Source of the DNA: Candidatus Omnitrophota bacterium
Lineage (GTDB): Bacteria; Omnitrophota; Gorgyraeia; Gygaellales; Profunditerraquicolaceae
Direction of reading: 5' to 3'
DNA: 64,000 nucleotides
Assembly: GCA_030650425.1 (NCBI GenBank)
Contig: JAUSED010000003.1
Span: 199,903-263,902 of the forward strand
Positions 41,505-50,615 of the stretch are shown here, piece after piece. The first letter of the stretch is position 1, and each line of letters opens with the position of its first letter. The notes below the pieces were generated by a model. It ran no database searches. It was not told the DNA's origin and was given only the letters and a program-made list of their open reading frames with translations. Position numbers and translations under genes: made by a program.

Positions 41505-42624
41505 CAAACTATCCATTATAACATTGACTTGTCTGCTTGTGATTAGTATCTTTAGCCCTACTTATGCCTCCGAGACCGTGCGTATAGCGATTATCCAAGA
41601 CACTTCATCCCTAAGCCTTAAGATTAAAGGTTTCTTCCAAATCAGGGATTTAGAAAAGCATAAAATCATCTACCACGCTAAAAGCATCGAGACAACCGTA
41701 ACCACCTATAAAAGCGGGATTGTTATCGGAGGGATTAAACCGGCTTCAGATAAGCTCTTGATTGAGTCAGATGACCCTGAGGCCTTCCTGATTAATGGCA
41801 AGTCCTTCCGGGGGAATATCCAACTAATCAAGAAGAGCAATAATAAACTATTGGTGATTAATTGTATTGAGCTTGAGGATTATATTAAGGGAATTCTGTA
41901 TCATGAATCTTCGCATTATTGGCCGATGGAGGCTTTAAAGGCGCAGGCGATTATCTCGCGTACTTACGCGCTTTATCAAATGCAGGAAAATAGGCGTAAA
42001 GATTTTGATCTGACCAGCGACATTTATTCTCAGGTTTATGGAGGAGAAGCTTCTGAGCGTTTTCGCACGAACAAGGCAGTGGATGAGACGCAAGGTAAAG
42101 CTCTCTTTTTTAAGGGAAAGATCATCCCGGCTTATTTTCACGCCACCTGCGGCGGGCATACGGAAGACGCGGCTCTCCTTTGGAATATCGATTTAGCGCC
42201 TTTAAAAGGAGTAGTCTGCCCTTATTGCAAAGAATCACCGCATTTTAACTGGCATTATGATTTTGGGCTAAAGGATATAGAAAAGAAGTTATCCGCTAAA
42301 GGATTTAAGCTAAAAAATATAACTAATCTAGGGATAGAAGGAAAAGATGCTTCGGGAAGGATTACTAATCTCATCATTAATTCAGAGCAGGGAGAAACTA
42401 AAGTCTCGGCTAAAGATTTTCGCGAGACGATCGGCCCAAATCTTATCCGGAGCACTAATTTTTCCGTGGCCATAGAGGGAAAAGACGCGGTTTTTGAAGG
42501 GATTGGCTGGGGACATGGCGTGGGGCTTTGCCAGTGGGGCGCCTATTTTATGGCTAAGGATGGCAAGAGCGCCGAAGAGATCTTAAAATATTACTATCCG
42601 GGGACAAATGTTAAAACTTTCTAA
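41497..42624 (+). CDS. SpoIID/LytB-domain protein (cell-wall amidase enhancer family)
   Basis: Signal peptide; YFHATCGGHTEDA motif. Confidence 0.7.
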   Translation: MNNKLSIITLTCLLVISIFSPTYASETVRIAIIQDTSSLSLKIKGFFQIRDLEKHKIIYHAKSIETTVTTYKSGIVIGGIKPASDKLLIESDDPEAFLINGKSFRGNIQLIKKSNNKLLVINCIELEDYIKGILYHESSHYWPMEALKAQAIISRTYALYQMQENRRKDFDLTSDIYSQVYGGEASERFRTNKAVDETQGKALFFKGKIIPAYFHATCGGHTEDAALLWNIDLAPLKGVVCPYCKESPHFNWHYDFGLKDIEKKLSAKGFKLKNITNLGIEGKDASGRITNLIINSEQGETKVSAKDFRETIGPNLIRSTNFSVAIEGKDAVFEGIGWGHGVGLCQWGAYFMAKDGKSAEEILKYYYPGTNVKTF

Positions 42625-43600
42625 TTTCGATTATCCCTTACCTAAAGAATTAATCGCCCAATATCCGCTTAAGGAGAGGGAGAGCGCGCGGCTGCTGGTG
42701 GTTAATCGGAGCGATAATTCAATCGAGCATAAAATATTTAAAGATCTAACGGGTTACCTTAAACAAAGCGATCTTTTAGTTCTAAATGATACCAAGGTGC
42801 TTACCTGCCGCTTGATGGGCCATAAGGCTACTGGCGGAAAAGTCGAGATTTTATTAACGAAACGTAAGAGCGGCTCTACTTTTGACGCGCTGATCCAGCC
42901 TAGCCGTACCAAAATCGGCGAAAAGATTTTTTTCGGTAAAAATGAAATCGCGGGAGTGGTCACTAACCGCAAAGAGATTACTTTTCAGCCAAAAGATGCT
43001 GATAGAATCTATGGGTTTGGAGAGGTTCCGCTTCCGCCTTATATAAAAAGAGAGCCTGAAGAGCTGGATAAAGAATATTATCAGACGGTTTATGCGGATA
43101 GGGAAGGCGCTATCGCTTCTCCGACCGCGGGCCTGCATTTTACCAAGGATTTATTAAAGCAAATAGAAGCGCAAGGGGTAAATATCGCGCATTTAACTTT
43201 GCATGTCGGCTTGGGCACATTTAAGCCGGTCATCACTGATGATATTACTGAGCATCAGATGGAGCCGGAGACTTTTCAGGTTTCCAAAAGCGCGCAGGAG
43301 AAGATAGAAGCAGCGCGCAAGAACAAATCGCGGATCATTGCCGTAGGGACAACGTCGCTGAGGGCATTAGAGGCTTATGCCGCAGGCGCCAAAGAAGGCC
43401 AGACTAATCTGTTTATTTACCCGGGTTATAAATTTAAGCTGGTCAATTGCCTGCTGACGAATTTCCATCTGCCCAAGACCACGCTTTTTATGCTCGTCTG
43501 CGCCTTTGGCGGAGAGAAATTAATCAAACAAGCGTATCAGGAAGCACTGGATAAGAAATACCGATTTTACAGCTACGGCGACGCAATGTTGATAATTTAA
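42608..43600 (+). CDS. queA: S-adenosylmethionine:tRNA ribosyltransferase-isomerase
   Basis: LSNFDYPLPKELIAQYPLKERESARLLVV; C-terminal NFHLPKTTLFMLV. Confidence 0.9.
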   Translation: MLKLSNFDYPLPKELIAQYPLKERESARLLVVNRSDNSIEHKIFKDLTGYLKQSDLLVLNDTKVLTCRLMGHKATGGKVEILLTKRKSGSTFDALIQPSRTKIGEKIFFGKNEIAGVVTNRKEITFQPKDADRIYGFGEVPLPPYIKREPEELDKEYYQTVYADREGAIASPTAGLHFTKDLLKQIEAQGVNIAHLTLHVGLGTFKPVITDDITEHQMEPETFQVSKSAQEKIEAARKNKSRIIAVGTTSLRALEAYAAGAKEGQTNLFIYPGYKFKLVNCLLTNFHLPKTTLFMLVCAFGGEKLIKQAYQEALDKKYRFYSYGDAMLII

Positions 43601-43608
43601 CACACCGA

Positions 43609-43663
43609 AAGGGACAGTTTCCGCAGATGGCTATTGCGAAGCTTGGACAGGAAACTGTCCCTT
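43609..43663. repeat. 14-bp perfect inverted repeat AAGGGACAGTTTCC...GGAAACTGTCCCTT enclosing a 27-nt loop, at the left edge of the accessory island
   Basis: Seen directly, 9 nt after the queA stop. Confidence 0.5.
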
Positions 43664-43867
43664 GGGGTCATTTGCTCTAATTGCTCTTTCATGCACCTGT
43701 CAATTTTCTCGCTCAGCACGATTTTTTAACGCCAATGATCTTTCAATGCTCAAGCTCCATTGGCTAAAATCGTGATTCGCTCGAAACTTGCCAGGTTCAT
43801 TTATAAGAATAGGGATCTAGTTTCTCTTTCCAAAAGTAAAGTAAGCAGGTCTAAGAAAGCAGGGCAA

Positions 43868-44206
43868 ATGGTGAAATATATGCCAGATCCAAATACTATA
43901 ATGGCAATGACATCAGTTTTTATGCTTGTTATTGTAGGAATCCAGGTATGGATTTCTATAAAACAAAACAAATTATTAGAAATGCAGTCGAGAATATCCA
44001 AAGCTTCAACTGTAAGTGCTATTTTTAATTTGATACAGGAATCAGATAAGATGTTATTAGATAATATAACTGTAATAGAAAAATATAGAGATGAAAAGGG
44101 TATGCCTAAAGAATTAGCTTTGGCAATGGTAACCGAATTTAAGAAATGCCGTGATGAGAGCGTAAAGAAACACAAAGAGATGCTTGAGGTGTTAGGAGAA
44201 AAATAG
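43868..44206 (+). CDS. hypothetical small membrane-anchored protein
   Basis: Start chosen at ATG 43868 (MVKYMPDPNTIMAMTSVFMLVIVGIQVWI, one TM) rather than the track's 43760. AT-rich, Lys-rich. Confidence 0.35.
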   Translation: MVKYMPDPNTIMAMTSVFMLVIVGIQVWISIKQNKLLEMQSRISKASTVSAIFNLIQESDKMLLDNITVIEKYRDEKGMPKELALAMVTEFKKCRDESVKKHKEMLEVLGEK

Positions 44207-44248
44207 AAGACATGCCTATGGGGCTTTATGCAAGCACTTTTTTGGCAC

Positions 44249-44279
44249 AAAATAGTAGATTATTATAATCTACTATTTT
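44249..44279 (+). terminator. AT-rich near-perfect palindrome AAAATAGTAGATTAT|TATAATCTACTATTTT after the 44206 stop
   Basis: Seen directly; followed by a T/A-rich tract. Confidence 0.35.
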
Positions 44280-44325
44280 ATTAACAAGTTAACGCGGTAA
44301 GACTTTATAAGCGGAAGAAATAACT

Positions 44326-45036
44326 ATGCAATGTGCACTTTGTCAAAATACAAAAAAACTTTGTAAATCCCATATAATTCCCGAATTCTTTTACAAAGAG
44401 TTATATGATAAAAAACATCGTTTTAAAGGAGTATATTCAATCTGGGGGAAAATCGTATTTCACTTTAAGGGATTTCGCGAACGTCTACTCTGTGAAGACT
44501 GTGAAAAAAAATTAAGTAGTTACGAAAAATACCTGAGGGACGTTCTTCTTGAACAATATCCTAAAATTATGGAACTAAAAGTCGGAGATAAGTTATATTT
44601 TAACGTCAATTATAAAAAAATCAGGCTTTGTTATCTTTCAATTCTTTGGCGTATGAGTATTGCTACTAAACGATTTTTTAAGAATTTTTCAATTCCTGAA
44701 TATGAGGGAAAACTTAAAGATTTACTTAATAGGGATGATCCCGGTAATCCTAATGAGTTTGGTTACATTGCTATAGTCCCCTTAATGAATAATTCTTTTA
44801 AAAGAGCTTGGTTTATTGATCCTCATCTGGGAAAAATGAATGGTGATGATATTTGCTTCGTTATGTTTGGGGGTATTTTATATATTTTCTTTATTACGTT
44901 TACTAATAATCCAAGGGCTGCAGAAGCATTCATACAAAGAGAAAATAAGTGGTTGATAACCGCCGTTGATGTAAAAGATACCCTTTTAGATAAATATATT
45001 AGAAATGCTCAAAAAATAATAAAAAAGTCTCAATGA
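44326..45036 (+). CDS. hypothetical protein with N-terminal Cys-rich HNH-like motif (candidate nuclease)
   Basis: C-x2-C-x8-SHIIPE ... LLCEDCEKKL resembles the zinc-ribbon/HNH arrangement (CxxC...HH(V/I)IP...LCxxCH). The remaining ~170 aa have no recognisable family. Very AT-rich. Confidence 0.45.
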   Translation: MQCALCQNTKKLCKSHIIPEFFYKELYDKKHRFKGVYSIWGKIVFHFKGFRERLLCEDCEKKLSSYEKYLRDVLLEQYPKIMELKVGDKLYFNVNYKKIRLCYLSILWRMSIATKRFFKNFSIPEYEGKLKDLLNRDDPGNPNEFGYIAIVPLMNNSFKRAWFIDPHLGKMNGDDICFVMFGGILYIFFITFTNNPRAAEAFIQRENKWLITAVDVKDTLLDKYIRNAQKIIKKSQ

Positions 45037-45075
45037 TGGGCACATTTTGAGCACAAGCTGTTCTTGAAGCATTCT

Positions 45076-45107
45076 AGGGACACGACATTTAATTCCTCGG
45101 AGAAAAG
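45076..45107 (+). repeat. intron-less paralog of the group II intron homing site (AGGGACA|CGACATTTAATTCCTCGGAGAAAAG)
   Basis: Matches the joined exons of the occupied site (…GGGGACA [intron] CGATACTTAATTCCTCGGAGAAAAG) over ~40 nt. Confidence 0.55.
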
Positions 45108-45166
45108 ATAATTAAGTAATGTGTCCCCGGAAATTCTGTGTATAGTAACCTTTACTTTCTTAACCT

Positions 45167-45649
45167 ATGTATTTCAATACTACGCTAGGAGCTAAAATAA
45201 ACAATAAGAAACCAACTAGTTTAGCTGGATTATTTTTTATTGGACTAATTTTTATAGCTGTATTTTTTATAGGAGGGAATGCTTCATTATTAACTCAAAA
45301 TATAGCTAACTGGCCTAAAGCTAAAGCCGAAGTTATTTCCGTTGAACCTGAAATCGTTTGTGAAACACCAGAAAGATCTAGCGCTTGCTACACTATATTT
45401 TTTATTAAATATTCATACAACGTAAATGGAAAAGAATACATTAACCAAATGAAACAAGAATATGTAACTAATTATATTCCTGGAAAAACATTTGATGTAC
45501 TTTATAAACAAGACAATCCTCAGCTTGTTTTTAAAAAGGATGACCTTCCCGGTAAATTCAAACTTTATCTATCCTTAATAATTGGATTGATTATCGTCAT
45601 CCCTATTATGTTTTTTTGGAAACAGAAACGAAACAGACGTGTTCCCTAA
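45167..45649 (+). CDS. DUF3592-like two-TM membrane protein
   Basis: TM1, then ...WPKAKAEVISVE...YSYNVNGKEYIN...GKTFDVLYKQDNPQ..., then TM2. This is the DUF3592 topology and motif pattern. Confidence 0.5.
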   Translation: MYFNTTLGAKINNKKPTSLAGLFFIGLIFIAVFFIGGNASLLTQNIANWPKAKAEVISVEPEIVCETPERSSACYTIFFIKYSYNVNGKEYINQMKQEYVTNYIPGKTFDVLYKQDNPQLVFKKDDLPGKFKLYLSLIIGLIIVIPIMFFWKQKRNRRVP

Positions 45650-45822
45650 CACTTAGCAATTTCAATAGTTGTAAATAAAATCTCCGCTCTTTGATAAATT
45701 AAAACTGTATTCCTTCCAGAGGGAATACATCTGCCAAATCTTCCGGCGCTAAAACCGCATCAGGCCTACGATGGAGACGGCGGAAGGGTAAAGAAGACAA
45801 CCGGCTCACCCGCTAACCCGCT

Positions 45823-45905
45823 GAAGAATTCCGTGAAGAATTCCGGGCAGAAGAATTCCCAATTCCGGGCAATTCCGCAATTCCGGCAATTCCGCAATTC
45901 AGGGG
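45823..45905. repeat. degenerate tandem array (~8 units) of AATTCCG/GAAGAATTCCG immediately 5' of the group II intron
   Basis: gaagaattccgt gaagaattccggg cagaagaattccc aattccgggc aattccgc aattccggc aattccgc aattcagggg. Confidence 0.7.
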
Positions 45906-46402
45906 ACAGTGCGCCAAGAAAGCTAATATGAACAGGCCGTAATAAACGGCACGGTCAAAGACTAACCATCAGGCCGTTACTATAGCTCTGCGTACAGCGA
46001 GGTAATAAGCTGTATGAAGCCAGAGTGAAGGAGATTGTCAACCGTAACGCAAGTGAAGGCAGTAAGTCCCGAAATGAATACGTCGCAGTGGGCTAATGGT
46101 TTGTCCCCTATGAAGCCAGCAGTATCACGCGCGTAAAGGTGAGTGCGTGATGTCCTGCCGGGATTGTAAGCCACAGTGGGCAATCAATATGTTTGTATTG
46201 GAACTTGTGAGAACCAACGTGTTTCCCATAAGTCGTCAACGAGCTTCTAAAGAAGCAAGGAGATGATAAGGCACGTTGGTAGTCGGACTAACTCATAGTA
46301 CTCAATGATATTGGGAAAGCCAATAACAAGGGGAAGGGGTTAGCAGTTAAAGTTGCACGAGGCTAAGGAAACATTGAGCGGACTCAAAGTCTGTGGAAAG
46401 CA

Positions 46403-47701
46403 ATGGAAACAAAATTAGACTCACTAAGTCAGTATGCCGCAAAAGAACCTCAGCGGAAATTCGTTAACATAATGTATCAGGTTAACGAAAGTTCTTTGAA
46501 GGCGAACTTCTATCTGCTCGGCAGGAAACGTGCAGTAGGAGTGGATGGCGTAGGTTGGCAGGAATATGGAGAAGGATTAGATGCCAACATCGATAACCTC
46601 TTGGAACGGATGAAGAGAATGGGCTATCGGCCGCAACCTGTAAGACGGGTGTATATACCTAAAGGCAGGAATGATAAAAGGCCTTTGGGTATCCCCACGG
46701 TAGAAGATAAGGTTGCGCAGAAGACAATGAGCCGGATTATGGAAGCGGTTTATGAACAAGACTTCTATGAATTCTCATACGGATTCCGTCCGGGAAAGAG
46801 TTGTCATCAGGCGCTTAAGCGAGTCGGCGAAATTATCAACTTTAAGCCAATCAACCATATTATCGAAGCGGACATCAAAGGGTTCTTCGATAACGTAGGA
46901 CACGAAAAGCTAATGGAATTGGTAAGAAGGAGAATTACCGATAAGAAATTCCTGCGTTATATCGTGCGCTTCCTGAAAGCCGGATATATTGAATCCGGTT
47001 TGTTAAAGGAAGCAAAACAAGGCACTCCGCAGGGAGGAAACTTAAGCCCGTTATTGGCTAACATATTTCTGCATTATGTGCTGGATGAATGGTTTGAAAA
47101 GGAGTTGAAACCGACTCTTGTAGGCCAGTGTTATTTGGTGAGGTATTGCGACGATTTTGTTATCTTGACGCAATATCAGCAAGAGGCAAAGACGGTAATG
47201 ACCCGGCTGCAAGAGAGATTCGAGGCATATGGCCTTGAACTCAACACGGAGAAATCAGGAGTAATAAGTTTTGGCCGCTATGAGCGGGAAAATGCCGAAA
47301 AACAGCTAAGGCGGGCAAATACTTTTGATTTCTTAGGGTTTACGCATTACTGCGCTTTGACACGTAAAGGCAAATTCAAGGTTAGTCGAAGGACAAGTGC
47401 TGAAAGATTCCGTAAGAGCCTCAGAGAAATATATCTCTGGCTCAAGGCTTTCAAGAATACGATTAGCATTAAGGAGTTATGGACACAGCTTGTAAGTAAA
47501 TTAAGAGGGCATTATCAATATTATGGTGTGAGTGAAAATCTTAGGAGGTTGCAAGAATTTTACCACCACATAGAAGATATGGCCTTTAAATTGCTCAACC
47601 GGCGGTGCGATAAGAAGTCCTTCAACTGGCGGGGATTCTGCAAATACTTGCAACGGTTTCCATTACCCAAGCCGCACATAGTATGTAACTTTTACGCATA
47701 A
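46403..47701 (+). CDS. group II intron-encoded reverse transcriptase/maturase (RT domains 0-7 + X; no En domain evident)
   Basis: RPLGIPTVEDKVAQ (RT1), FRPGKSCHQA (RT2), QGTPQGGNLSPLLANIFL (RT4), YCDDFVIL (RT5 YxDD), maturase X tail. Confidence 0.9.
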   Translation: METKLDSLSQYAAKEPQRKFVNIMYQVNESSLKANFYLLGRKRAVGVDGVGWQEYGEGLDANIDNLLERMKRMGYRPQPVRRVYIPKGRNDKRPLGIPTVEDKVAQKTMSRIMEAVYEQDFYEFSYGFRPGKSCHQALKRVGEIINFKPINHIIEADIKGFFDNVGHEKLMELVRRRITDKKFLRYIVRFLKAGYIESGLLKEAKQGTPQGGNLSPLLANIFLHYVLDEWFEKELKPTLVGQCYLVRYCDDFVILTQYQQEAKTVMTRLQERFEAYGLELNTEKSGVISFGRYERENAEKQLRRANTFDFLGFTHYCALTRKGKFKVSRRTSAERFRKSLREIYLWLKAFKNTISIKELWTQLVSKLRGHYQYYGVSENLRRLQEFYHHIEDMAFKLLNRRCDKKSFNWRGFCKYLQRFPLPKPHIVCNFYA

Positions 47702-47727
47702 CCGAATACTGATGGAAACTTACTGAA

Positions 47728-47760
47728 GAGCCGTATGCGGGAAATCCGCAAGTACGGTTC
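47728..47760 (+). ncRNA. group II intron catalytic domain V
   Basis: Canonical 33-34-nt hairpin with AGC and GAAA tetraloop. Confidence 0.8.
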
Positions 47761-47883
47761 TGTGAGGGGCTCTGAAATACGGGCCTACTCGACCGATACT
47801 TAATTCCTCGGAGAAAAGGAACGAACGGGGGGCGTCCCAAAAAGGGACACCCTTGGTTTAGCTGATGCGATGAAGAATCGTAA

Positions 47884-48300
47884 CTAATCCCTATAAAATC
47901 CTATTCTGCGCTTGGGTTTTTCCGGGGGAGCCATAAGCTGGCGGATGGCTTCAAATATCTCTTTGATCGTCTGGTTGTGTTCGGCATATCTCTTCTCAAG
48001 TGATTCAATCTTTACAGCTAATTCTTTATGCGTTAAAAGAATTAGCCTTAGTTTAGTAAAGGCCCGCATAATTAATATATTTACTTGAATGTCCCTTTCA
48101 CTATTTAGCACACTTGAGAGCATAGCCACTCCTTGTTCGGTAAAGACATAAGGTAGATATTTAATGTTTTGGCCTTGTTTCAAGGACGCAAAATGCGACC
48201 TTGAATTTAAGATCACATTTTGTGATCTTAAAGAATCCAATTCTTCATTTGTAATTTGAAACATGAAATCATGGTGAAAAGCGGTATTAGTTCTTTCATT
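47884..48300 (-). pseudogene. 5'-truncated ORF6N-domain gene remnant
   Basis: FQITNEELDSLRSQNV...YLPYVFTEQGVAMLSSVLNSERDIQVNILIMRAF matches the ORF6N core. Homology (..FHHDFMFQ..) continues upstream of the ATG to an in-frame stop at 48301-48303. The usual first ~40 aa of the domain are absent. Confidence 0.6.
48210..48228. repeat. palindrome P1 AGATCACA-TTT-TGTGATCT (TCACA-N3-TGTGA core), inside the ORF6N remnant
   Basis: Seen directly; encodes RSQNVIL in the remnant. Confidence 0.7.
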
Positions 48301-48379
48301 TTATTCTCGTCTCTACTATAATAGACGTAAGATAAGGTAAAATCTAACAAAGAATTATTTAAATAACAAGGCAAATGCA

Positions 48380-48398
48380 ATGTTTGAACTAATTCAGC
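48380..48398 (+). repeat. orphan copy of tgt 5' end (ATGTTTGAACTAATTCAGC); 18/19 identical to tgt start at 49476-49494
   Basis: Direct comparison of the two sites. Confidence 0.8.
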
Positions 48399-48403
48399 CT
48401 AAT

Positions 48404-48430
48404 CTTGAAGTCACAAATTGTGACTTCAAG
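48404..48430. promoter_or_regulatory. palindrome P2 CTTGAAGTCACA-AAT-TGTGACTTCAAG (12-bp arms)
   Basis: Seen directly, in the intergenic region upstream of the 48531 gene. Confidence 0.5.
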
Positions 48431-48468
48431 ATTTAAAGTGAAAAATAGACGCTGAACGTATTGTTCAA

Positions 48469-48487
48469 GATCGCAATTTGTGATCTC
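48469..48487. promoter_or_regulatory. palindrome P3 AGATCGCA-ATT-TGTGATCT; near-copy of P1 including flanks (TTCAAGATC...ATCTCAAAG)
   Basis: Seen directly, ~45 nt upstream of the GTG start at 48531. Confidence 0.5.
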
Positions 48488-48530
48488 AAAGGTTATCGGA
48501 AACGCAGACACTACTCAAAGGGAGGGAAAG

Positions 48531-49001
48531 GTGAAAAAGTATATTATTTTTCTCTTATTTTTCCTGGCTTTGAATATTAACGTTTATTGCGGCCAGGAAA
48601 GCAGGATTGAGTTGACTGATGGCAGCGTGCTTAACGGAGAAGTAACTTCTTTAGCCAGCGGCACTTATACTATCAACACCGCTTCTATGGGCGTAATAAA
48701 AATTGACGCGGCAAAGGTCGCTAAAATTGAATCAGTGAAATCCTCCGCGCTTAGTTCAGCAATTAATCTTACACCGGCACAAATTAACAGCTATAAGCAA
48801 AAAATTATGGGTAATCCGGATGCAGCCGCCGCAATCAAAAGTCTATCTGCTAATCCTCAGATTAAGGCGTTAGCGGAAGATCCGGAAATTGTCAATGCCG
48901 CCAAGTCCGGGAATATCCAAGAATTGTTCAGTAACAAAAAGTTTACGGATGTTTTAGAAAGCCCTGAGATACAAGAAACAGCTAAGAAAATTAAGCAATA
49001 G
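48531..49001 (+). CDS. hypothetical secreted protein with NP/DP (STI1-like) repeats
   Basis: GTG start with ggaggg RBS; signal peptide KKYIIFLLFFLALNINVYCG; repeats NPDAAAAIK / NPQIKALAEDPEIVNAAK / SPEIQETAKK. Confidence 0.5.
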   Translation: MKKYIIFLLFFLALNINVYCGQESRIELTDGSVLNGEVTSLASGTYTINTASMGVIKIDAAKVAKIESVKSSALSSAINLTPAQINSYKQKIMGNPDAAAAIKSLSANPQIKALAEDPEIVNAAKSGNIQELFSNKKFTDVLESPEIQETAKKIKQ

Positions 49002-49015
49002 CAAGGAGAGATGTT

Positions 49016-49480
49016 ATGGGTAAGAAGATAAAGCGGATAATCGCTAAAGAAGGGTTGATCATTATCGCCATCGCGGCGATAATGTATATTTTTAAGACAT
49101 TCGTGCCCTCTTTCACGTTCCCTTATCCGAAAGTGAAATTAGCATTCCAGGATGGAACCTCGAATATTATAGAGATCTATCCGGAGATGACTACCTCTGA
49201 GCTCGCGGGTAAGATCGGCCCAAGCGGGTTGATCAAGAAATATCATTGCCCAACCCCTGAACTTATCTCCAAGCGGATCGATAAATTCATCCAGGAGAAC
49301 AAAAAGACTTCAGCGCTGGTTGATAAAAAGTGTGTGAATGAAAAACAGCTCTATCTGTATAGGGCATACTTTAATTTCCTGTTTCAACCTTTGCCTTTTA
49401 GGACATTAACTATCTATCTTTTCTTATTACTTATCCGTTTCATTGGCTGGGCGGTCAGGGTATTGAATAAAAATGTTTGA
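49016..49480 (+). CDS. hypothetical membrane protein (N- and C-terminal TM helices)
   Basis: RBS aggagag; stop overlaps the tgt ATG (ATGTTTGA). Confidence 0.45.
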   Translation: MGKKIKRIIAKEGLIIIAIAAIMYIFKTFVPSFTFPYPKVKLAFQDGTSNIIEIYPEMTTSELAGKIGPSGLIKKYHCPTPELISKRIDKFIQENKKTSALVDKKCVNEKQLYLYRAYFNFLFQPLPFRTLTIYLFLLLIRFIGWAVRVLNKNV

Positions 49481-50615
49481 ATTAATTCAGCAAGATAAAA
49501 ATAGCGGGGCGAGGCTGGGAAAGCTGACTACGGAGCATGGGGTAATCAATACGCCTTGTTTTATGCCTGTTGGGACGCACGCGACCATCAAAGGGCTTTA
49601 TCCTAAGGATGTGGAAGAGGCAGGCGCGGAAATTATGCTCTCTAATACCTATCATTTGTTCTTACGGCCGGGAATGGAGATTATCCGTAAAGCCAAGGGA
49701 TTACACAACTTTATTGCGTGGAAAAAGCCGATTCTTACGGATAGCGGTGGTTATCAGGTGTTTAGTTTAGCGCTTTTAAGGAAGCTAAGCGATAAAGGCG
49801 TGGAGTTTCAGTCGCATATCGATGGATTTAAACATTTCCTGACTCCTGAAGATGTAATCGACATACAACAGGATTTAGGCTCGGATATTATGATGCCGCT
49901 GGATGAATGTGTGCATTACCCCTGCGGAAAAGATCAGGCGGAAGTAGCGATGAAGCGCACGATCAATTGGGCTAAACGTTCGCATAAGCATCTAGAAGAG
50001 CATAAAAAGCATGGTCCAACCAAGAAGCAGCTCCTTTTTGGTATTGTGCAGGGCGCGACCTACGAAGACCTGCGTACTGAATGCGCCAAGGAATTAACCG
50101 ATATTGATTTCGATGGCTTTAGCATTGGCGGAGTTTCTGTTGGCGAACCCAGCGATTTAATCTATAATATATTATCTTTTAGCGCGAAATTACTTCCTCA
50201 GCATAAGCCGCGTTATGCTATGGGCATAGGTTATCCGCCGGATATCATCGAGGCAGTGGAGCGAGGGATTGATATGTTTGATTGTGTGGTTCCTACCCGT
50301 TACGGCAGGAATGGAACCGCTTTTACCAGTACCGGAAAGATAATTATCAGGAACGCTCCCTTTGCCGAAGATTTTAGGGCACTCGATGCTAAATGCGGCT
50401 GCTATACCTGTAAGACTTTCAGCCGGGCATACCTGCGCCATTTGTTTAACGCGCAGGAGATGCTCGGTTTGACCTTACTTTCTTTACACAATGTTTATTT
50501 CTTTTTGGATTTGGCGCGTAAGATCAGAGAGGCAATTCGGCAGGATAGGTTTAGTGACTTCAAAAAAGAATTCTTGAGTCAGTATAATAGTTTGATAGGG
50601 GACACTTTCCTTTAA
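49473..50615 (+). CDS. tgt: queuine tRNA-ribosyltransferase
   Basis: HGVINTPCFMPVGTHATIKGL; LTDSGGYQVFSL; zinc site CGCYTCKTFSRAYLRHL. Confidence 0.9.
   Translation: MFELIQQDKNSGARLGKLTTEHGVINTPCFMPVGTHATIKGLYPKDVEEAGAEIMLSNTYHLFLRPGMEIIRKAKGLHNFIAWKKPILTDSGGYQVFSLALLRKLSDKGVEFQSHIDGFKHFLTPEDVIDIQQDLGSDIMMPLDECVHYPCGKDQAEVAMKRTINWAKRSHKHLEEHKKHGPTKKQLLFGIVQGATYEDLRTECAKELTDIDFDGFSIGGVSVGEPSDLIYNILSFSAKLLPQHKPRYAMGIGYPPDIIEAVERGIDMFDCVVPTRYGRNGTAFTSTGKIIIRNAPFAEDFRALDAKCGCYTCKTFSRAYLRHLFNAQEMLGLTLLSLHNVYFFLDLARKIREAIRQDRFSDFKKEFLSQYNSLIGDTFL

Follow-up and report, generated by a model that had tools for sequence, protein, structure and literature searches.

In the stretch of Candidatus Omnitrophota DNA analyzed here (hereafter the window, 64,000 nucleotides in length), an islet of 5,872 bp lies between two queuosine genes, queA (which ends at 43600) and tgt (which starts at 49473), in agreement with the split of about 5.9 kb described in an initial annotation made from the sequence alone. 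With a probability that we put at about 0.8, this islet is a hot spot at which genes turn over in a lineage-specific manner between syntenic core genes, its content having arisen in at least four independent events. As such it is a known and ordinary kind of gene-exchange hot spot, and two of its components are leads worth following, namely the protein family of orfB, which is the best lead, and a palindrome associated with an ORF6N-type gene. Both flanking genes are intact, with queH and a spoIID-like gene upstream of queA and trmD and rplS downstream of tgt. The queuosine cluster (queH, queA, tgt) is thus split without damage, in an otherwise rigid co-directional 64-kb housekeeping stretch of tightly packed plus-strand genes.

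The variability of the spot is apparent from comparison with relatives, which were found by a scan for QueA using one genome per species. Three of the loci obtained (L002, L003, and L004) share the flanking synteny of the window, having queH and queA followed by tgt-trmD-rplS with flank proteins that are 57–89% identical; spoIID is detected in L002 and L004 and not in L003. The distance between queA and tgt is 2,661 bp in L002 (QueA 81% identical), 1,565 bp in L003 (68%), and 11 bp in L004 (64%), and none of the three contains a relative of any open reading frame (ORF) of the islet in the window. Instead, L002 carries three genes of 192, 307 (DUF5677), and 191 residues that are unrelated to the cargo of the window, and L003 carries a 145-residue membrane protein and a flavodoxin-like protein. 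The GC content of this cargo is 30–33% versus 44.8% in L002 and 36–38% versus 43.6% in L003, and PADLOC identifies no known defence system in the cargo of either. A fourth relative, L089 (Tgt 72% identical), has yet another AT-rich gene upstream of tgt. Unrelated cargo in the relatives, together with gaps of 11, 1,565, and 2,661 bp, indicates that the spot between the syntenic core genes is hypervariable. The expectation that an alignment with related genomes would reveal different content, and queA and tgt next to each other in some of them, is therefore borne out. In the other loci containing both genes, drawn from genomes and metagenomes, the gaps are mostly 6–220 bp and reach at most 2,690 bp, and the gap in the window is the largest among the approximately 50 queA-tgt loci compared. 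The premise that the two genes are normally adjacent thus holds for most compared loci, but since in many Bacteroidota the 10 kb around queA contain no tgt, adjacency is common rather than universal.

The composition of the gap is consistent with several origins. The GC content is 43.7% for the window (standard deviation 2.6 in 1-kb segments), 44.7% for queA, 44.9% for tgt, and 39.0% for the gap. Positions 43801–45700 have 31.7% GC and a tetranucleotide distance of z ∼5, and are the sole such outlier in the 64 kb. A 100-nt profile shows a drop in GC content at ∼43800, from 42–50% to 34%, and a return at ∼45700, from 32% to 49%. All 1-kb segments below 37% GC lie within 43501–45750 except for a marginal one at 48001–49000 (36.4%), and all 2-kb segments with a tetranucleotide distance more than 2.5 standard deviations above the mean overlap 43501–46500 (z up to 5.1). 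In the remainder of the gap the GC content is 53% in the 184 nt preceding a group II intron, 44.7% in the intron, 36% in the region of the ORF6N remnant (47800–48479), and 41% in the segment containing orfD and orfE, so that four abrupt changes in composition occur across the gap. The initial annotation described a single acquired or hypervariable island with lower GC content than every flanking gene. The sliding GC and tetranucleotide profiles confirm a strongly deviant block, and the gap is indeed lower in GC on average, although this is contributed by about one third of its length. The hypervariability and the foreign block stand, but the single island gives way to a mosaic made up of four or more distinct pieces, of which about one third is compositionally foreign. 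These composition changes argue for several origins, and the pieces appear to differ in history (foreign, self-mobile, decayed, and relocated).

The AT-rich block contains orfA, orfB, and orfC. The product of orfA has 111 residues when read from its ATG, a length also found in an independent assembly of the same DNA from the Logan collection, and one transmembrane (TM) segment; its frame is open from a TTG at 43760. It weakly matches phrog_2284 (unknown function, E 4.8e-5) and has no Pfam, PADLOC, or NCBIfam match above the curated cutoff. The product of orfC matches Pfam PF12158 (DUF3592; E 1.6e-6, 29.1 bits versus a gathering cutoff of 25.3 bits), a family whose function is unknown (PMC12482557). 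The islet had been given as its left edge a perfect 14-bp inverted repeat just after queA. The repeat is real, having arms at 43604–43622 and 43650–43668 and a folding energy of −33.3 kcal/mol (z −4.2), with no T-run after it and no counterpart in L002 or L003. However, because it sits in DNA of host-like GC content, ∼150 nt upstream of a block at 43759–43810 that is shared with L003, it is not the boundary of the cargo. That block is 77% identical over 53 nt to L003 3142–3192 (E 1e-4), its alignment with L002 is weak, and the GC drop and the cargo begin directly after it at ∼43811.

Several smaller features lie in and beside the AT-rich block. A second inverted repeat, which is imperfect (43691–43800; arms of 35 nt, 77%), extends across the block that L003 shares, and a short conserved reading frame opens with this block (MAKIVIRSKLA in the window, MAKIDIRSKFA in L003). 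A 16-nt inverted repeat (15/16; 43820–43835 and 45614–45629) coincides with both GC steps of the AT-rich block; its right arm is inside orfC, and by our own estimate chance alone would give ∼0.3 such pairs in the region. The GC-rich stretch that follows contains tandem repeats identified by TRF (TGAAGAATTCCG, 2.5 copies, and AATTCCGC, 5.6 copies), and its 184 nt have no match in the window, in the related loci, or in any other sequence searched.

The next piece is, as judged by its RNA domains, its encoded protein, and its boundaries, a complete group II intron. Domains I–IV match Rfam RF02005 at 45942–46173 with 98.5 bits (gathering cutoff 49) and domains V–VI match RF00029 at 47726–47793 with 61.8 bits (gathering cutoff 40). 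The 5′ end is GUGCG at 45909, the 3′ end is ...CUCGAC at 47793, and the sequence of domain VI can be read as having a bulged A 7 nt before the 3′ end. The intact intron-encoded protein of 432 residues comprises reverse transcriptase and maturase (TIGR04416, 360 bits with a cutoff of 300; RVT_1, E 2e-38; GIIM, weak), and Pfam and NCBIfam scans find no endonuclease domain in it. A retron or defence-associated reverse transcriptase (DRT) was considered and rejected, as the ribozyme domains and TIGR04416 identify a group II intron. Exon-binding site 1 (EBS1), UGUCCCCU at 46102–46109, is complementary in 8 of 8 nt to intron-binding site 1 (IBS1), AGGGGACA at 45901–45908, which forms the last 8 nt of the GC-rich stretch. 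The 3′ exon is identical in 25 of 25 nt to L002 11807–11831 and in 23 of 25 nt to positions 45083–45107 of the window, which are the first half of an uninterrupted hairpin element of ∼50 nt. By this match, the window contains two copies of a small element that is also present in L002 and lies between cargo genes, and the intron occupies one of them. The uninterrupted copy is 90% identical over 51 nt to L002 11806–11855 (fold −21.1 kcal/mol, z −2.4) and has a weaker IBS1 (TAGGGACA); a 19-nt core of the element occurs twice in the window, with 0.03 occurrences expected. The element has no match in viral contigs. The intron is in noncoding DNA, since joining its exons yields no more than an open frame of low complexity that lacks an ATG. 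Among plasmid records it has no close relative, the single weak match being 68% identical over 26% of its length. In its RNA domains, its GUGCG end, its bulged A, its 432-residue reverse transcriptase and maturase, and its intergenic insertion co-oriented with transcription, it resembles bacterial group II introns without an endonuclease domain. Unlike those introns, it interrupts the 5′ arm of a small hairpin element and does not follow a terminator, and it is assigned by Rfam only to subfamily D1D4-6.

Beyond the intron lies a truncated ORF6N-family gene. The remnant matches positions 44–86 of the 86 in the Pfam ORF6N profile (E 1.7e-11), lacking the first ∼55 residues, and it matches PADLOC PDC-S05 from profile position 62 (E 3e-29) and phrog_4792 (anti-repressor, E 1e-10). 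No N-terminal part of ORF6N is readable in any frame upstream of it. Two degenerate tandem palindromes are contained in the remnant at 48182–48233, and two free palindromes of the form TTgAAGTCACAAATTGTGACTTcAA follow between it and orfD, one of which (48401–48433) is perfect, with 16 nt on each side of one central nucleotide. The palindrome sequence is TTGAAGTCACAAATTGTGACTTCAA. In the loci fetched up to that point, the core RTCACAAWTTGTGAY occurs only at the queA-tgt spot of the window, L002, and L089; three tandem palindromes lie just before tgt in L002 (13447–13586), and one abuts the tgt ATG in L089 (1331–1364). The most plausible reading of the free copies beside tgt is that they are relics of ORF6N genes formerly at the spot, or cis-elements derived from such genes.

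The rightmost piece begins with a relic of the start of tgt. Positions 48379–48398 and 49472–49491 are identical in 19 of 20 nt, with 0.08 chance matches expected, so that the 19-bp duplication of the tgt start reported to bracket the right part of the islet is found; it brackets 48399–49471 only and not the whole gap. The relic is preceded by ACAAGGCAAATGCA; in L089 the corresponding ACAAGGCAGACGC precedes the tgt ATG by 42 nt, with one palindrome in between. In view of this arrangement, 48361–48398 appears to be what remains of an earlier junction of a palindrome unit with tgt, and TGTTTGAA is common to the palindrome flank and the tgt start. After the relic come the two free palindromes, orfD, and orfE, which overlaps the start of tgt by 8 nt. 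The proteins encoded by orfD and orfE have a signal peptide or TM segments, and both are identical to NCBI proteins (Q7K98_02015 and Q7K98_02020) from a 359-kb contig of ‘Candidatus Omnitrophota bacterium’. For orfD there are 20 homologues (42–74% identity), the two with source names being proteins of Omnitrophota metagenome-assembled genomes (MAGs), and no family match in Pfam, PADLOC, NCBIfam, or PHROG; for orfE there are 15 homologues (63–78% identity). Both genes are absent from the spot in L002, L003, L004, and L089, and one orfE homologue, P0062 (71% identity), from another Omnitrophota contig, is in a different neighbourhood without tgt. The statement that the islet has only hypothetical, mobile, or remnant content needs correction for these two genes, which are not orphans and whose named homologues are from Omnitrophota MAGs. 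The orfD-orfE piece appears to be DNA of the clade relocated to the start of tgt rather than foreign DNA. The surroundings of P0062 recall magnetosome genes: it lies between a Band_7 gene and an 86-residue gene, after which come a trypsin-like protease, a MamF_MmsF protein, and a two-component pair.

Taken together, the pieces suggest the following events, the order of which we infer. The 1.9-kb AT-rich block with orfA, orfB, and orfC, beginning after the block shared with L003, would have been acquired horizontally and recently enough to keep its foreign composition. The intron would have retrohomed into one of the two copies of the hairpin element through the 8-bp EBS1/IBS1 pairing, and an ORF6N-type gene would have decayed in place, leaving the truncated gene and free copies of the palindrome in its coding sequence. 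A 1.09-kb piece with orfD and orfE would have entered at the very start of tgt, leaving the 19-nt relic, and would now be read into tgt. The turnover is most likely driven by double homologous recombination in the conserved flanks, in combination with local illegitimate events or events mediated by palindromes or microhomology. More speculatively, the left block, the hairpin element, and the palindromes may supply local homology or fragile sites. Four points weigh against this interpretation. The close relatives compared are four and belong to different species, so that gain and differential loss are not formally separated; the 19-nt direct repeat around the right-hand piece also fits site-specific integration; the join across the palindrome at 48401–48433 rests on one assembly; and the defensive role considered below for orfB is guilt by association, in nine contexts and without a background rate.

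The main rival is a single decayed integrative element (prophage, satellite, or islet) that would have inserted by site-specific recombination at an attachment site overlapping the first 19 nt of tgt, rebuilt the start of the gene from its own copy, and since lost its integrase, which is possible but unlikely. The direct repeat of the tgt start, the truncation of the ORF6N gene, and the phage-family matches of orfA, of the ORF6N remnant, and of orfB (phrog_19960, phrog_7075, and phrog_26326, all of unknown function) are consistent with such an element. However, Pfam and NCBIfam scans of the gap ORFs reveal no integrase, excisionase, transposase, recombinase, structural gene, or replication gene, with no ORF of at least 150 residues unaccounted for, and the window contains no tRNA or tmRNA as an attachment site. 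The repeat encloses only the right 1.09 kb, which has near-host GC content and genes conserved in the clade, and not the AT-rich part. Relatives of orfB are encoded by only 7 of 2.9 million viral contigs, and the four abrupt composition changes again argue for several origins.

Compared with this rival, it is considerably less probable that the content of the gap is ancestral to the clade and was differentially deleted in relatives. The conservation of orfD and orfE in the clade, and the sharing of the left block, palindromes, and hairpin element between genomes, would fit such a history. But the AT-rich genes have no counterpart in L002–L004 and differ by 12 GC points from the host, the relatives carry different genes and not subsets of those in the window, and in the more distant L004 and in most other lineages queA and tgt are adjacent.

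An assembly chimera, in which two MAG contigs were misjoined at a palindrome, is very unlikely. An independent Logan assembly of run SRR13727527 (contig L001) reproduces positions 42608–48433 exactly (base for base at protein level) and ends at 48433, precisely the end of the perfect 33-nt palindrome; in addition, the exact tgt product of the window is not on record in the Logan collection. Against a misjoin, the left contig already holds the relic of the tgt start and the type of palindrome found beside tgt in L002 and L089, both flanks retain the synteny of the relatives, and orfD and orfE are also recorded from Logan. Logan assemblies use k = 31. A perfect palindrome of 33 nt exceeds this value and would by itself explain the break, and the stop at 48433 may thus be a break in the de Bruijn graph and not necessarily strain variation.

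Finally, an integron-type cassette array, with the hairpin elements as recombination sites and an intron that targets them as IIC-attC introns do, is scarcely credible: although the element lies between ORFs, twice in the window with one copy occupied by the intron and once in L002, no integron integrase (IntI) is found by Pfam or NCBIfam, the other inter-ORF hairpins are unrelated (the shared element being one of three), the R″ and R′ core sites of attC are not seen in the element by eye, and the intron, which has an 8-bp IBS1, interrupts the 5′ arm, so that an integron/attC reading of the element was rejected.

The preferred interpretation, a turnover hot spot filled piecemeal, has precedent. 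Hot spots of horizontal gene transfer without mobile-element genes have been described, with double homologous recombination in the flanks as the proposed mechanism and above-average recombination in the adjoining core genes (Oliveira et al. 2017, PMC5635113). The queA-tgt spot resembles them in its conserved syntenic flanks, its AT-rich content that varies by genome, and the lack of an integrase, transposase, or tRNA. It differs in being defined here from five genomes of different species and not from a species pangenome, and in having its own conserved noncoding scaffold consisting of the left block, the hairpin element, and the palindromes. Uncultivated Omnitrophota thus share the hot-spot architecture of model bacteria. 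As in defence islands and hot spots such as those of the E. coli repertoire (PMC10121019), small accessory genes of unknown function are found at a variable spot, relatives of orfB elsewhere neighbour known defence genes, and the ORF6N remnant matches PDC-S05. Unlike those islands, the window contains no complete known system, and its three AT-rich genes do not co-occur elsewhere.

The features of the locus are collected in Table 1. Every item listed for the gap in the initial annotation was found again by means of ORF lists, Pfam, Rfam, NCBIfam, and repeat searches. The PADLOC scan of the gap ORFs that had been proposed there matched no known defence system: with PADLOC-DB 2.0 no complete system is present in the gap, orfA through orfE have no match at E ≤ 0.1, and the matches are limited to generic reverse transcriptase models for the intron protein and the single-gene candidate PDC-S05 for the truncated ORF6N gene. 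The gap cargo forms no recognisable system. An Rfam scan of the gap returned the intron domains and nothing else below E 0.4 (no riboswitch), and genes of the islet have no paralogues elsewhere in the 64-kb window. The ORF6N remnant is the sole plausible minus-strand gene in the window, the 2 other minus-strand ORFs of at least 150 residues overlapping plus-strand genes. In the relatives, other repeats are found at the spot. A GC-rich element of ∼130 nt (gagcgggcaggg.tgcccg ... gaaacaagacaaggcagacgc) is common to L003 (3790–3920) and L089 (1190–1325), running in L089 into the palindrome unit before tgt. A hairpin resembling repetitive extragenic palindromic (REP) elements, GATTGCTTCGTCCGCC..GGCGGACTCGCAATGAC, flanks the spot before tgt in L002 (13600–13645) and, inverted, after queA in L003 (2880–2920), and is absent from the window.

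Table 1. Features of the queA-tgt region, in coordinates of the window.
Feature	Position	Strand	Basis
queA, left core flank, intact	42608..43600	+	Pfam Queuosine_synth, E 4e-127; 81/68/64% identical to queA of L002/L003/L004
Hairpin just 3′ of the queA stop	43604..43668	.	19-nt arms, perfect 14-bp core; fold
Left scaffold block	43759..43810	+	match to L003, weakly L002; cargo begins directly after
AT-rich block, 31.7% GC	43801..45700	.	composition
orfA, small single-TM protein	43871..44206	+	ORF list; phrog_2284
orfB, 236-residue Cys4/SHIIPE protein	44326..45036	+	family alignment, profile searches
Hairpin element, uninterrupted copy, putative unoccupied intron target	45082..45132	+	90% match to L002
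orfC, DUF3592 membrane protein	45167..45649	+	Pfam PF12158
GC-rich (53%) stretch with short tandem repeats	45725..45908	+	TRF, composition
Group II intron	45909..47793	+	Rfam, intron-encoded protein gene 46403–47701, EBS1/IBS1
3′ exon, second half of the hairpin-element copy split by the intron	47794..47818	+	match to L002
ORF6N-family gene remnant	47884..48264	-	Pfam ORF6N, PDC-S05, phrog_4792
Probable relic of the first 19 nt of tgt	48380..48398	+	repeat search, 19/20 including flank
Two free ORF6N-type palindromes (48401–48433, 48464–48491)	48401..48491	.	repeat search
orfD, small exported protein	48531..49001	+	GTG start 48531; frame open from 48480
orfE, small membrane protein	49016..49480	+	8-nt overlap with tgt start
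tgt, right core flank, intact	49473..50615	+	Pfam TGT, E 1e-161; 89% identical to tgt of L002

The protein encoded by orfB contains a CxxC motif and the motif SHIIPE and has no Pfam, NCBIfam, or PADLOC match; a promoter-like site (44242–44269, 11/12) lies upstream of its gene. A word-based search yields 55 relatives, and a profile search at E ≤ 1e-3 retrieves 8,371 representatives (∼8,400 clusters at 50% identity), of which 1,835 also pass E ≤ 1e-30; almost all have 230–270 residues. Ten longer members have no Pfam domain and no fused domain. In the family alignment (A1) the residues S15-H16-I17-I18, E20, Y27, G49, E52, L54-L55-C56, C59-E60, E67, S105, and W108-R109 are invariant and C3, C6, and P19 are nearly so. 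The AlphaFold2 model is confident (predicted local distance difference test 94.2, predicted template modelling score 0.91). Neither the profile nor its N-terminal part has a significant match among PDB sequences, and the predicted fold appears to have no solved relative. The description of this protein as HNH-like is weakly supported, in that 5 of the 30 family members scanned match Pfam HNH_5 only at sub-threshold scores (best E 0.071) and the protein of the window is among those unmatched by Pfam. The closest known counterparts considered for this protein are the HNH (beta-beta-alpha-metal) nucleases, Pfam HNH_5, and the HNH domain of ZRANB3 (5mkw). The first ∼70 residues can thus reasonably, if not conclusively, be called HNH-like, and the rest of the protein is new.

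The genes surrounding orfB homologues elsewhere point to defence. In 6 of 9 other contexts the homologue adjoins genes of cyclic oligonucleotide-based antiphage signalling (CBASS), AbiL, Type II or III restriction-modification (R-M), SoFic, or PDC-S15. These comprise a CBASS cyclase (E 3e-109) and 4TM effector (7e-86), with a phospholipase D (PLD)-type nuclease, PDC-S02, and an integrase nearby, in L171; AbiLi/AbiLii (5e-91, 3e-23) in L172; a Type II methyltransferase and restriction enzyme (4e-109, 1.5e-26) in L086; a Type III R-M pair in L170; SoFic (6e-111) in L085; and PDC-S15 in L169. The remaining three have toxin-antitoxin-like genes nearby (RES/Xre, MqsA, DUF6036), and in 8 of the 9 loci the GC content of the orfB gene is below that of its surroundings. 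Annotated phages and plasmids give three weak matches, two to hypothetical proteins and one in an unannotated record. A conserved partnership of orfA, orfB, and orfC was rejected, since in the nine other contexts the homologues occur without any of the neighbours they have in the window. Judging by its neighbours in other genomes, orfB most likely acts on its own as an accessory gene of a defence or toxin type and encodes a zinc-bound HNH-like nuclease module, and the overall pattern fits a mobile gene. Placement beside CBASS, AbiL, R-M, and SoFic genes, together with low GC content, is what an anti-phage or toxin gene would show, and a further, tentative proposal that we regard as rather doubtful is that orfB represents an unrecognised, widespread single-gene anti-phage or toxin family of ∼240 residues with a Cys4 zinc-bound HNH-like module (His16, Glu60, Glu67). 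The family is large and unannotated, combines a confident unmatched fold with a defence-island neighbourhood, and is open to expression and phage-challenge testing. In L170 (4833–9133), the homologue is one of five consecutive unannotated genes for proteins of 240–270 residues behind the Type III R-M pair, another of which has a weak Abi_alpha match.

The second pointer from the locus is the odd DNA palindrome, which seems to be conserved beyond the needs of the protein motif. The palindromes encode LRSQ(I/F)VTS, a conserved ORF6N motif. An exact 25-nt palindrome is found at 30 places in viral contigs, of which 12 are spanned by a tblastn match to the remnant and 13 are in frames with clear ORF6N; the other 17 matches are free-standing, a few of them adjoining ORF6N genes. 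A single-sequence search of the viral contigs yields no close ORF6N relative of the remnant. Among ORF6N genes fetched by protein similarity, all 10 distinct variants keep 9–12 of 12 palindromic pairs, compared with ∼5 expected under random synonymous codons (P between <0.0002 and 0.02), with the ten genes being mutually related. These results are suggestive of a constraint at the DNA level on the ORF6N palindrome. The palindrome could be a cis-acting DNA site, in which case the free copies could mark and drive recombination at the tgt-proximal spot. The remnant is like phage proteins of the ORF6N/KilA-N type (phrog_4792) in that the LRSQxV motif is preserved along with the C-terminal half of the domain; it is unlike them in its N-terminal truncation, its tandemly duplicated, degenerate motif, and the free palindromes located outside genes next to tgt. 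In viral loci L174–L290, the amino acid at position 2 of the motif varies together with that at position 7, as is required for the palindrome to be kept. Tandem duplication of both the LRSQxV motif and its palindrome is seen within the coding sequence of the phage ORF6N gene of L202 (…LRSQIMTAERGTEDETNLRSQFVTS…) and in the remnant of the window (LRSQNVILNSRSHFASLK).

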